A stretch of DNA of 5,242 nt, from assembly GCA_964468425.1 (NCBI GenBank), contig CAYXSZ010000064.1:1-5242 (forward strand), read 5' to 3'. Position 1 is the stretch's first letter. Every line of letters starts with the position of its first letter. The DNA comes from Candidatus Woesearchaeota archaeon (lineage in GTDB: Archaea > Nanobdellota > Nanobdellia > Nanobdellales > Nanobdellaceae). This document shows, in pieces, positions 2,279 through 5,242 of the stretch. The position numbers and the translations under genes were made by a program. Below the pieces are notes generated by a model. The model saw only the letters and a program-made list of their open reading frames with translations, was not told the origin of the DNA and did no database searches.

Positions 2279-3448
2279 GTGAAGGTGTTGGTAACGACAA
2301 ACCGCGGATTCGAAGACGCTTGCGCAAGCGAAATAAAAATGCTAACAGGAAAGGAAAGCGAGATAAGACCTTTTGGAGTCTTAGGTAGAGTAATGTTTGA
2401 AGTAAAAAACTTAGAAGAAGCTGCAGAGTTCACGTATCTCACAAGAACCGCAAATAGAGTTGTTCTTTTCTTAAAACACTTTAAAGCGCCTAGAACTAAA
2501 GAAGGACTAGAAAAAATATATGGAGAGCTTAAGGATATGGATTGGGAATTTATGAACGAGAACATAACGTTTGCGGTAAGATCTAAAAGGATGGGAGTCC
2601 ACGAATACAATTCAATGGATATTATGCGTGTAGCAGGGCAAGCCATCATAGATTCCATTCAAGAAAGAAAGAAGTATCGTCAAAAAGTAAATCTAGACGA
2701 ACCCGATGTAGTTATTCGAGTGGATGCTGTTGGAGAAGATTTTTTTGTTGGAATAGACTTAGTAGGCGAGAAGGGACTGCACAAAAGAGGTTACAAAGTT
2801 TACAACCATCCAGCATCCTTAAAACCCACGATTGCGCAGAGTTTAATAATCTTGTCTGAATGGTGTGAAAACAAAGTTTTGTTAGATCCAATGTGCGGGT
2901 CGGGAACAATACCAATCGAAGCTGGTTTATTTGCAAGAAACATACCAGGTTCCTTTTGGAGGAAAAAGGATTTAGCCCTAACTAAGCTAGAAATAGGAAT
3001 AGATTGGTTTGAGTTCTTCAGAAACATCGATGAAAAGTTCATTCGGGATTCGGATGCAAGAATTATAGCTTCCGATAAGCTAGTCAGACACGTAAAGGGA
3101 GCAGAGATCAACGCGCAAAGAGCTCTTGTCAAGGATCTTATACAATTTCGCAGGATAGATCTCGAGTGGCTCGATCTCAAGATCGGCGAAAAGAACGTTG
3201 ATTATATAATCACGAACCCTCCGTACGGAGTTAGAATGTCCTATAAGGAAGAACTACAAAAAATCTATAAGTACTTGTTTTATCAAGCGGAGTATATATT
3301 GAATGATCAAGGGAAGATTGTTTTGATCACTACTCAAAAGAAGCTAACGCTTAAGTATGCTGAAAAATACAAGTTCTCCTTGGTTCACGAGCGAAAAGTT
3401 TGGAACGGAAACTTAGAGGCATTCGTCTTTATATTTACCAAGGAATGA
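2279..3448 (+). CDS. trm14: THUMP-domain SAM-dependent RNA (guanine-N2) methyltransferase, Trm14/TrmN (COG0116)-like, 389 aa
   Basis: ORF from GTG2279 to TGA3446-3448. The N-terminus 'KVLVTTNRGFEDACASEI' is typical of the ferredoxin-like/THUMP module. SAM motif I is 'LDPMCGSGTIPIEAG'. The catalytic motif IV 'ITNPPYGVRM' (NPPY) marks exocyclic-amine methylation. Length and domain order match archaeal Trm14 (m2G6) and bacterial TrmN/RlmL rather than the shorter Trm11. The target nucleotide is inferred, not shown. Confidence 0.8.
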   Translation: MKVLVTTNRGFEDACASEIKMLTGKESEIRPFGVLGRVMFEVKNLEEAAEFTYLTRTANRVVLFLKHFKAPRTKEGLEKIYGELKDMDWEFMNENITFAVRSKRMGVHEYNSMDIMRVAGQAIIDSIQERKKYRQKVNLDEPDVVIRVDAVGEDFFVGIDLVGEKGLHKRGYKVYNHPASLKPTIAQSLIILSEWCENKVLLDPMCGSGTIPIEAGLFARNIPGSFWRKKDLALTKLEIGIDWFEFFRNIDEKFIRDSDARIIASDKLVRHVKGAEINAQRALVKDLIQFRRIDLEWLDLKIGEKNVDYIITNPPYGVRMSYKEELQKIYKYLFYQAEYILNDQGKIVLITTQKKLTLKYAEKYKFSLVHERKVWNGNLEAFVFIFTKE

Positions 3449-3469: not shown

Positions 3470-3652
3470 ATGAAAATAATGGATATCCGCGAAGTTCCAA
3501 AAAGCACAACGACAAAGACTATGCTAGTGGTAGAAAAAGGAGTCAAGTTCGTTTGTCCTAACTGCGGTAAAGGAACAATAATTAGAACGAATAAAGAGAG
3601 AAAAATGGGTGTTAAGTGGGTGTGTCCATCTTGCGGATTCGAAGGACCGTAG
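3470..3652 (+). CDS. Small Zn-ribbon protein (60 aa) of the COG2888 type ('Zn-ribbon RNA-binding protein involved in translation')
   Basis: ORF ATG3470 to TAG3650-3652, with ATG3479 as an alternative start. It has two CPxCG knuckles, 'CPNCG' and 'CPSCGFEGP', and the C-terminal 'CPxCGFxGP' ending characteristic of this family. It sits directly upstream of aEF-1beta, the conserved neighbourhood for the family. Confidence 0.8.
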   Translation: MKIMDIREVPKSTTTKTMLVVEKGVKFVCPNCGKGTIIRTNKERKMGVKWVCPSCGFEGP

Positions 3653-3656
3653 GACG

Positions 3657-3932
3657 ATGGGAAAGGTAATCATTACCCTTAGAATTTATCCAGAAGAAGT
3701 GGATACAGATCTCGCAAGAATAGTGGAAGAAGCCAAGAAAATAATCTCCGAGTTCGAAGGAGAGTACTGGAAGCACGAAGAAGTGCCTATAGCTTTCGGT
3801 TTAAAGGCTCTAGACGTAAAGTTTACCTATCCAGACAAGGAGTTTGAAGAGGAAAAGTTCTTGGAAAAAATTAAGCAAATAGAAGGTGTAAGCGACGCCG
3901 AAGTAACGGGAGTCACTCTTTCATCTATTTAA
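3657..3932 (+). CDS. ef1b: Translation elongation factor aEF-1beta (91 aa)
   Basis: ATG3657 to TAA3930-3932. The size is typical at about 90 aa. The N-terminal strand is 'VIITLRIYPEEVDTDL', the core is 'EEVPIAFGLKAL', and the C-terminus is 'EGVSDAEVTGVT', matching the archaeal EF-1beta pattern (cf. Pyrococcus '..EREPIAFGLVALK....VESAEVETVSRI'). The 107-aa version in the track, starting at GTG3609, overlaps the Zn-ribbon gene and is not needed. Confidence 0.9.
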   Translation: MGKVIITLRIYPEEVDTDLARIVEEAKKIISEFEGEYWKHEEVPIAFGLKALDVKFTYPDKEFEEEKFLEKIKQIEGVSDAEVTGVTLSSI

Positions 3933-5242
3933 TGTCTTTTGAAATAAAGAGGTTCGAGGAACTCGACCTGAAAGGTTTAAAGAAGGAAATAGAAGAGGAA
4001 AGAAAGTTCGTAGAAAAAGTTCTCGAGGGAAAAATCGAGTGTGATAAAAAGGAATTCGTAAAAACAGCCCTGTTTGTTGTAGAATCTCCCAACAAGGCTA
4101 GAACCATCGCCAACTTTTTTGGAAAGCCCTCAGTTAGATCCTTCGGAAAGATACAAGCCTATGAAGTTTCAATTGGAAACTATCACTTAATAATCACTGC
4201 TACAAAAGGGCACTTGATTGATCTCTCTACAAAAGACATAGGTCTTTATGGTGTAGAAGTCAAAAATGGAAAGATTTTACCTCACTATAACTCAATCAAA
4301 AAGTGTTACGATTGCGGTTATCAGTTTACAGAATACGATTCTGAGGAGAAAAAATGTTTAGTGTGTGGAAGTGACAACATCGACGATGCGTGGGAAAGAA
4401 TCGAAGCCATCCAGCAACTAGCTCAAGAAGTTGACGAAGTAATCATTGGAACGGATCCCGATGCGGAAGGTGAATTTATAGCGTACACCGTTTATTTGTT
4501 AGTCAGACCCTTCACTCAAAATATTAAAAGAGCAGAGTTTCACGAGGTAACAAAAACAGCTATAATAAATGCTCTTAATAACCTTCGAGAAATTAACTTG
4601 AATAGAGTCAAGGCTCAAATGGTTAGGAGAATAGAGGATAGATGGTTAGGATTTAGCTTAACTGAAAAAGTAAGAAAAGCGTTTAAAAAAGATTGGCTGT
4701 CAGCGGGGAGAGTACAAACTCCCGTTCTTGGGTGGATTGTAAAAAGATACCTCGAGCATAAGAACTCTCTAAGCTATTTCATAGGAATCCGAGCCGGAAA
4801 GTTAAATTTAATCTTAGACCTAGATATTAAAGATAAGAAGAAACTAAACCAAGTTCTAGAGGTCTTGAAGAAAGCTAAAGTTAAGATAAAAAATAAGAAG
4901 TACGAAGAAGTGGAGTTAAATCCTCTACCCCCTTACATGACCTCAACTATGCTTCAAGACGCCACGAACTATCTCGGAATAGGAGTAGATCAAGTCATGC
5001 AAATTGCACAGGATTTATTCGAAGCAGGACTTTGTGTGGCTGGTGATACGTACATAACCCTAGCAGATGGTCAAATAAAAAGAATAAAAGACATTGTTGA
5101 AAAGAAAGAAAATACATCCCTATTAGGAACGAACAGCTTATCCATTAAAGAGAGTAAAATAGTAAAACATTGGAAAATAAAGTATTCTGGAAAAATTAGA
5201 AAAATAATCCTGGAGAATGGATATGAAATAAAAGTAACTCCA
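3932..5242 (+). CDS. rgy: Reverse gyrase, topoisomerase (Toprim/type IA) subunit encoded without the helicase module; 3'-partial (runs off the window) and interrupted by an intein from nt 5033
   Basis: I translated this by hand: ATG3932 overlaps the aEF-1beta stop (TAATG), and 437 codons stay open to the window end. It is absent from the ORF track because it has no stop in the window. Reverse-gyrase signature motifs are 'ALFVVESPNKARTIANFFGKPS' (Toprim Glu51, nt 4082-4084), the inserted Zn finger 'CYDCG..x12..CLVCG' (4304-4369), 'IIGTDPDAEGE' (4442-4474), 'SAGRVQTPVLGWIV' (from 4700), 'PLPPYMTSTMLQDA', and 'IAQDLFEAGL', which normally precedes I-T-Y-H-R-T-D with the catalytic Tyr. Confidence 0.9.
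   Translation, partial: MSFEIKRFEELDLKGLKKEIEEERKFVEKVLEGKIECDKKEFVKTALFVVESPNKARTIANFFGKPSVRSFGKIQAYEVSIGNYHLIITATKGHLIDLSTKDIGLYGVEVKNGKILPHYNSIKKCYDCGYQFTEYDSEEKKCLVCGSDNIDDAWERIEAIQQLAQEVDEVIIGTDPDAEGEFIAYTVYLLVRPFTQNIKRAEFHEVTKTAIINALNNLREINLNRVKAQMVRRIEDRWLGFSLTEKVRKAFKKDWLSAGRVQTPVLGWIVKRYLEHKNSLSYFIGIRAGKLNLILDLDIKDKKKLNQVLEVLKKAKVKIKNKKYEEVELNPLPPYMTSTMLQDATNYLGIGVDQVMQIAQDLFEAGLCVAGDTYITLADGQIKRIKDIVEKKENTSLLGTNSLSIKESKIVKHWKIKYSGKIRKIILENGYEIKVTP
5033..5242 (+). mobile_element. Intein, N-terminal splicing region (block A and following), truncated by the window end
   Basis: The extein motif 'AQDLFEAGL' is followed not by the catalytic-Tyr motif but by 'CVAGDTYITLADGQIKRIKDIVE', a close match to intein block A (C-[LV]-x-G-D-T-x-[VI]-x-L-x-D-G-x-x-x-x-I-x-[DE]-[LIV]). 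The window ends at '..ENGYEIKVTP', the usual lead-in to block B (T-x-x-H). The C-terminal splice junction and any homing-endonuclease domain are out of view. Confidence 0.75.

Follow-up and report, generated by a model that had tools for sequence, protein, structure and literature searches.

A probable r-Gyr intein at the catalytic tyrosine site of a separately encoded nanoarchaeal reverse gyrase subunit

Reverse gyrase is the signature enzyme of hyperthermophiles, and inteins are known to interrupt it, the r-Gyr intein of Methanocaldococcus jannaschii being catalogued in InBase. Described here is a 5242 nt stretch of DNA (contig CAYXSZ010000064.1, 38.9% G+C; hereafter, the window), at the end of which an intein begins inside a stand-alone gene for the topoisomerase subunit of a reverse gyrase. 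Among single-chain enzymes, Rgy of Thermococcus kodakarensis (TK0470) has been described as a 1222 aa extein interrupted by one intein of 489 aa (PMC11409957). Together these lengths match those of the 1711 aa Thermococcus proteins considered below, a comparison that covers length and not insertion site.

Separate helicase and topoisomerase subunits of reverse gyrase have been documented for Nanoarchaeum equitans (NEQ434, helicase; NEQ318, topoisomerase; PMC4117796, PMC8185306, citing Capp et al. 2010) and for the Yellowstone nanoarchaeon Nst1 (337/402; PMC3655853). As in N. equitans, the topoisomerase module in the window stands alone and starts at the linker between helicase and topoisomerase, but the nanoarchaeal subunits described so far (634–664 aa) are intein-free and read GL-ITYHRTDS at the corresponding position. 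In Methanopyrus kandleri, the split lies inside the topoisomerase module, not far from the intein site of the window, and leaves the active-site tyrosine on the small subunit. The two proteins, RgyA and RgyB, make up a heterodimeric reverse gyrase (PMC4117796, PMC8185306). Their split point is not that of the Nanoarchaeota and, unlike the window protein, they carry no intein.

A precedent for an intein meeting gene fragmentation in a nanoarchaeal DNA enzyme is PolB of N. equitans, which has a split intein and is joined by trans-splicing. Its genes, NEQ068 and NEQ528, are listed among the split genes of that organism (PMC3655853). The split point of PolB is inside the intein, whereas in the window the division between helicase and topoisomerase lies some 370 residues from the intein site, and the homologous inteins are contiguous. 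In the literature searched, reverse gyrase inteins and split nanoarchaeal reverse gyrases are mentioned only separately. A first-pass annotation of this DNA, made from the sequence, had considered an intein within a split reverse gyrase to be unusual; this holds in so far as the combination is undescribed in that literature, but not beyond it, as both components are known and the combination is also present in at least three unannotated database proteins (P0236, P0237 and P0336).

The topoisomerase subunit and the intein within it

The open reading frame (ORF) for the reverse gyrase topoisomerase begins at 3932 and stays open to the end of the window (3932–5242, + strand). Its first 367 codons (3932–5032, +) specify the N-extein, which spans the linker, a TOPRIM domain with Zn finger and the beginning of the topoisomerase IA domains, and ends in the conserved helix ...IAQDLFEAGL. 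When compared to the reverse gyrase equivalog model TIGR01054, the N-extein scored 464.5 bits (E = 6e-139) over profile positions 560–916 of 1172, that is, across one third of a profile for which the full-length cut-off is 471.7 bits. The runner-up model was bacterial topA, with 170 bits, and Pfam matches to Toprim and Topoisom_bac were also found. The scores identify the protein as a type IA topoisomerase module of the reverse gyrase type, a kind marked by TOPRIM with Zn finger and by a VESPxKA motif, and the metal-binding motif of its TOPRIM domain, GTDPDAEGE, is free of any intein.

The N-terminus of the protein (MSFEIKRFEELDLKGLKKEIEEERKF...) can be aligned residue by residue with the N-termini of 'reverse gyrase' proteins of 634–664 aa that are encoded alone in Ca. 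Nanoclepta minutus, Nanobdella aerobiophila, Nanopusillaceae and Ca. Nanopusillus sp. Of the relatives that have names, Nanopusillus, Nanoclepta and Nanobdella are the closest. Single-chain enzymes have the corresponding segment in their interior, for example at position 598 of a 1711 aa Thermococcus protein. No helicase-like module is present in the window upstream of 3932, where the neighbouring genes code for EF-1beta, an aS21 protein and a THUMP methyltransferase. The stop codon of the EF-1beta gene overlaps the ATG at 3932 (TAATG, window 3930–3934), and there is thus no fused upstream helicase domain. The window protein represents the topoisomerase portion of a reverse gyrase split in the manner of the Nanoarchaeota, and not a canonical single chain, and the proposal that this subunit is encoded alone stands on the TIGR01054 match, the EF-1beta gene upstream and the alignment of its N-terminus with those of the nanoarchaeal subunits.

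Across the junction the frame reads ...QVMQIAQDLFEAGL|CVAGDTYITLADGQIKRIKDIVEKKEN...ENGYEIKVTP. The part following the junction is the N-terminal splicing region of an intein, residues 1–70 (5033–5242, +), which stops at the contig end. This segment gave a match to Pfam PF14890 (Intein_splicing) with E = 7e-10 to 2e-10 and 39–41 bits (cut-off 35.8). When the six residues that the sister contig L002 (described below) adds to it were included, it matched NCBIfam TIGR01445 (intein_Nterm) with 67.2 bits (E = 2e-18; positions 1–82 of 83; cut-off 24.5 bits). These matches are far beyond chance and the insertion is confirmed. Block A (5033–5071, +) consists of the Cys1 nucleophile and CVAGDTYITLADG; the Cys1 codon, TGT (5033–5035), directly follows ...FEAGL, and the block aligns column for column with those of homologues, for example CVTPDTLVTLADG in Thermococcus and CVAEDTLVVAKDG in P0237. 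Block B begins with Thr69-Pro70, the last two codons of the window (5237–5242, +), while Asp71-His72 lie 1–6 nt past its edge. The T-P-D-H motif is completed in L002, which reads ...KVTPDHALLA. An intein with Cys1 had been proposed earlier for this segment, with a TxxH block B expected at the edge of the window, and both proposals were confirmed, the first by PF14890 and TIGR01445 scores above their cut-offs and the second by the downstream extension in L002.

Judged from orthologues without an intein, which read FEAGL|ITYHRTDS at this point, the insertion site lies two residues before the position of the catalytic tyrosine. In the closest relative, a protein of Ca. Nanopusillus sp. (P0001), the N-extein is 74.7% identical to that of the window, there is no intein, and the sequence at the insertion point, FEAGLITYHRTDS, represents the empty site. 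The P0001 locus is syntenic with the window (THUMP, aS21, EF-1beta and reverse gyrase genes). Alleles free of the intein include P0001, P0002 and P0003 (75–65% identical), as well as all named Nanoarchaeales subunits. The intein segment has a lower G+C content (30.5%) than the adjoining N-extein (37.7%), a value taken over 210 nt only and, to that extent, consistent with a foreign origin.

Same-site inteins and the proposed course of splicing

In the protein homology search, listed matches were no longer than about 1.75 times the query, so a first search missed full-length homologues carrying inteins. A chimeric query of 740 aa, combining the N-terminal part from the window with the C-extein of P0001, recovered P0235, P0236 and P0237, and further intein-bearing proteins, with alignments running on through the intein part, came from an exhaustive search of representative sequences. 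Ten other proteins were found with inteins at the same site, their N-terminal parts being 37–49% identical to that of the window. All ten have TPDH in the block B column, and block A is likewise matched column for column.

Five of these proteins are single chains: P0337, of Thermococcus waiotapuensis/T. zilligii (intein of 488 aa), P0338 (485 aa), P0339 (346 aa), P0341 (313 aa) and P0343 (337 aa). Three more are subunits of the split type, namely P0237 (1206 aa, with an intein of 494 aa carrying LAGLIDADG domains), P0336 (1382 aa, with a LAGLIDADG intein of 456 aa) and P0236 (1048 aa, with a mini-intein of 122 aa). All eight read (F)(E)x(G)L|C...HN|CTYHR(T/S)(D/S)S, and in all complete homologues the intein ends in ...(F/Y)(I/F/L/V)(A/S)N(G/A/V)xxxHN. 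The Ile that precedes TYHRTDS in uninterrupted proteins is replaced by a +1 Cys in all complete intein-bearing proteins examined.

P0337 and other Thermococcus proteins share with the window the insertion site (FEAGL|C...HN|CTYHRTDS in Thermococcus), Cys1, a C(V/L)xxDT block A and TPDH. The N-terminal parts of their inteins are 44–45% identical to that of the window, but their host is a single chain of around 1220 aa, whereas that of the window is a stand-alone topoisomerase subunit of around 660 aa. The same site in Thermococcus reverse gyrases (P0337, 488 aa) agrees with the first-pass placement of the insertion by the catalytic tyrosine motif; the site is the known one of the r-Gyr intein. 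Like the window protein, P0237, P0336 and P0236 have the N-terminus of a split subunit and an intein at this site (HN|CTYHRTDS in theirs); the N-extein of P0237 is 55% identical to that of the window, and P0336 is 54% identical overall. In P0236 and P0336, as in the window, the EF-1beta gene is directly upstream. This pairing of EF-1beta with the gene for the topoisomerase subunit is conserved both at the Ca. Nanopusillus locus and at those of the more distantly related P0236 and P0336 (L014, L037 and L039).

A degenerate DNA pattern for H-N-C-T-Y-H-R-T-D, run on GTDB contigs with one genome per species, gave 18 matches. Seventeen were genuine inteins at the r-Gyr site, all with HN|C-T-Y-H-R. 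Their hosts are Thermococcus/Thermococcaceae, Archaeoglobaceae, Aquificota, two bacteria of the Candidate Phyla Radiation (CPR), a metagenome-assembled genome (MAG) labelled 'Undinarchaeota', uncultured archaea and a MAG labelled 'Woesearchaeota', the last represented by a contig (L034) that has the P0336 gene in a copy truncated at its 5' end. The occurrence of one intein at a homologous site in these hosts implies its spread across domains. These matches, together with the complete proteins, bear on the prediction that the C-extein could not start with Ile: in the homologues Cys stands in for Ile, and the earlier reasoning about the +1 residue was correct in substance.

Several observations on the wider family may be added here. 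In the reverse gyrases of Aquificota (L026, L027 and L030), the intein is bounded as GL|C...HN|CTYHRTDS, and the same boundaries are seen in type IA topoisomerases of CPR bacteria (L028 and L029; Saccharibacteria/Parcubacteria MAGs), where the intein is 500–514 aa long. The exteins of P0236 and P0336 are 91–94% identical, but their inteins at the shared site differ in length (122 and 456 aa) and share only about 37% identity in their N-terminal parts, a contrast that points to intein turnover or replacement at a single site. In P0235, P0236 and P0336 the TOPRIM metal-binding motif is interrupted by a further intein, about 255 aa long (for example, L037:3001-6147 and L039:3001-7149), with the arrangement GTDPD|S-ITGDM...CHN|TEGE, so that Ser1 and Thr+1 flank the splice points; P0236 and P0336 differ from the window protein by this insertion in the DPD motif.

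From sequence comparison, we assign the intein of the window to the known r-Gyr allele, residing here in a Nanoarchaeota-type split reverse gyrase. The reading we favour, and consider probable, is that this r-Gyr intein interrupts the separately encoded topoisomerase subunit of a nanoarchaeon, is removed by class-1 splicing, and leaves a mature subunit that pairs with the helicase subunit. The host would be a hydrothermal-vent nanoarchaeon related to Ca. Nanopusillus, with a reverse gyrase made as two polypeptides, as in N. equitans, and its topoisomerase gene would have been invaded by the mobile element that interrupts reverse gyrase at the same site in Thermococcus and in other hyperthermophiles. 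The intein would separate Leu367, at the end of the ...FEAGL helix, from the residue preceding T-Y-H-R-T-D-S, in which the tyrosine is catalytic. Because it lies two residues from that tyrosine, the unspliced precursor is presumed to be inactive.

The class-1 route would be expected from the homologues and from established intein chemistry. Splicing would begin with an N-S acyl shift at Cys1, helped by the Thr and His of block B, and proceed by trans-thioesterification to a +1 Cys present in place of the usual Ile. Cyclisation of the terminal Asn would then release the intein, and an S-N shift would give ...FEAGL-C-TYHRTDS..., after which the spliced subunit would associate with the separately encoded helicase subunit. 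By analogy with the homologues, the intein of the window would have the usual C-terminal splicing blocks, an HN|C junction, a size in keeping with theirs, whether as a mini-intein or with an endonuclease, and competence for splicing, and its host would possess a partner subunit.

Sister assemblies and the far side of the intein

Related contigs (L001, L002, L003, L035 and L036) were found by exact-protein matches to EF-1beta, aS21 and the THUMP methyltransferase. L002, from a vent metagenome of the Joint Genome Institute (JGI), differs from the window by 10 single-nucleotide polymorphisms (SNPs) and is 15 nt longer. An assembly artefact, in which a nanoarchaeal reverse gyrase contig had been joined to reads of an intein belonging to a different vent organism, for instance Thermococcus, would be in keeping with the position of the segment at a contig end and with a metagenome rich in Thermococcales that carry the same intein allele. 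However, three independent assemblies, made from different samples (the window, L002 and L035), agree exactly at the extein/intein junction and over the 205 nt that follow, with SNP differences elsewhere, so that the junction is not a chimera. In addition, the G+C content of the segment, at 30.5%, is below the 37.7% of the N-extein, and its protein identity to the N-terminal parts of Thermococcus inteins (P0337 and P0017) is only 44–45%. We regard an artefact as extremely improbable.

The points that weigh against a splicing-competent intein in a two-subunit enzyme lie mostly beyond block B. The visible intein amounts to 70 residues (76 with L002) and ends before blocks F/G, the terminal Asn, the +1 residue and the catalytic tyrosine motif. 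All six assemblies (the window, L001, L002, L003, L035 and L036; several vent metagenomes, at least four samples) end before or inside the intein, which suggests that this region is unresolvable by assemblers, being variable or repeated; a variable region would explain the assembly breaks at the intein. A scan of metagenomes with the C-extein of P0001 returned only relatives of up to 49% identity and no C-extein fragment of this organism, and a protein search with the same query gave nothing above 50% identity. The helicase partner subunit is not in the window, and the DNA available from the organism covers 5.2–9.6 kb. Finally, L035 is identical to the window as far as base 5237, the first base after the codon for intein residue 68, but beyond that point KSGWQLKGAIEDIKASSFNNPNIQAVYAYDEVNK takes the place of TPDHALLA, and L035 has no TxxH where all homologues have TPDH (the divergent region corresponds to window 5238–5242, L035:9532–9633 and L002:5233–5257). 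Some copies of the intein may be splicing-defective, or L035 may be misassembled.

The tail of L035 is open in one of six frames, that of the intein itself, and has no significant similarity to homologous inteins (blastp E > 5). Two scans of viral contigs with both alternative tails (window/L002 type and L035 type) gave no match. At the 5' end of the gene for an AFOR-family protein (L035:4400–4600), this contig is 127 nt shorter than the window and L036, and that gap makes an assembly error in L035 plausible. If it is not a misassembly, the tail may belong to an intein variant of one strain; strains may carry different forms of the intein, for which P0236 and P0336 would provide a precedent.

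Taken at face value, the L035 tail, departing from the window after residue 68, lacking TxxH and occupying the only open frame of six, would fit a decaying intein or gene, that is, a splicing-dead copy that has lost block B or the C-terminal blocks, for example, and leaves a pseudogene or an inactive precursor. The C-terminal half is also present in no contig. Yet the window and L002 retain Cys1 and blocks A and B in canonical form, in an unbroken frame, with a full-length match to TIGR01445, and the N-extein is 75% identical to an intact orthologue and without frameshifts, while the 127 nt gap in the AFOR gene suggests an error of assembly in L035. Decay is, in our view, unlikely.

A third explanation is that the ORF stops soon after block B, and that the C-terminal piece of the intein and the C-extein are encoded elsewhere, giving an enzyme of three genes that requires trans-splicing as well as heterodimerization, in the manner of N. 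equitans PolB. The contigs end 2–7 codons after the start of block B, the last bases of L002 (...GCA TA) allow either Tyr or a stop as the next codon, and split genes are known in Nanoarchaeota, including that of the DNA polymerase NEQ068/NEQ528 (PMC3655853). Against this, L035 continues in frame, and all of the homologous inteins examined at the r-Gyr site (11/11) are contiguous. The ORF runs without a stop for 76 intein residues in L002 and for 102 in L035. The N-pieces of split inteins are typically longer than 76 residues, the length that a piece ending four residues past the His of block B would have here. No gene for a separate intein C-piece was found, either in the protein search with the C-extein or among the short C-terminal proteins inspected on long contigs. 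The latter, reverse gyrase 'proteins' of 260–290 aa, were considered as split-intein C-pieces and rejected, as they are truncated gene calls starting at an internal Met before ITYHRTDS and have no intein C-piece. The P0001 cluster also includes partial proteins, of 448 and 226 aa, which were similarly examined as candidates for intein-broken genes and set aside, their breaks not being at an intein. We consider a split intein very improbable.

A broader variant would have strains of the organism carrying alternative inteins at the catalytic tyrosine site, one of them (L035) without block B and without standard splicing, or else a split intein and a three-gene enzyme; in either case, unusual or conditional splicing would gate the activity of reverse gyrase in an obligate symbiont. 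We hold this to be quite unlikely, and prefer a contiguous r-Gyr intein that is removed by class-1 splicing before the subunits pair.

Neighbouring genes and significance

The remaining genes of the window lie upstream of the topoisomerase ORF. The first codes for an AFOR-family oxidoreductase (38–1684, +), which matched the archaeal GAPOR profile only weakly (265 bits; cut-off 1300), and in L035 and L036 a molybdopterin oxidoreductase gene is found upstream of it. Such a load of redox metabolism genes is unexpected for a nanoarchaeon. It is followed by a tRNA-Leu(CAG) gene (1691–1776, +) and, on the opposite strand, by an ORF of 150 aa with a hydrophobic N-terminus (1777–2229, −), which is predicted as a gene in every sister contig and has no family match in Pfam or NCBIfam. 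Next are the genes for the THUMP/UPF0020 methyltransferase (2279–3448, +), the aS21/HVO_2753 zinc-ribbon protein (3470–3652, +) and EF-1beta (3657–3932, +; Pfam PF00736, E = 5e-16).

The case leaves the general understanding of inteins and of reverse gyrases unchanged and is, in this respect, fairly ordinary. It flags several unannotated database proteins in which split reverse gyrases contain one or two inteins, and the pair of empty and occupied sites at a syntenic locus is useful for studying how inteins move from one vent archaeon to another. With this case, the hosts of the r-Gyr intein come to include the reduced genomes of Nanoarchaeota-like symbionts, in which an active reverse gyrase would need two post-translational steps, the splicing of the intein and the association of the subunits.

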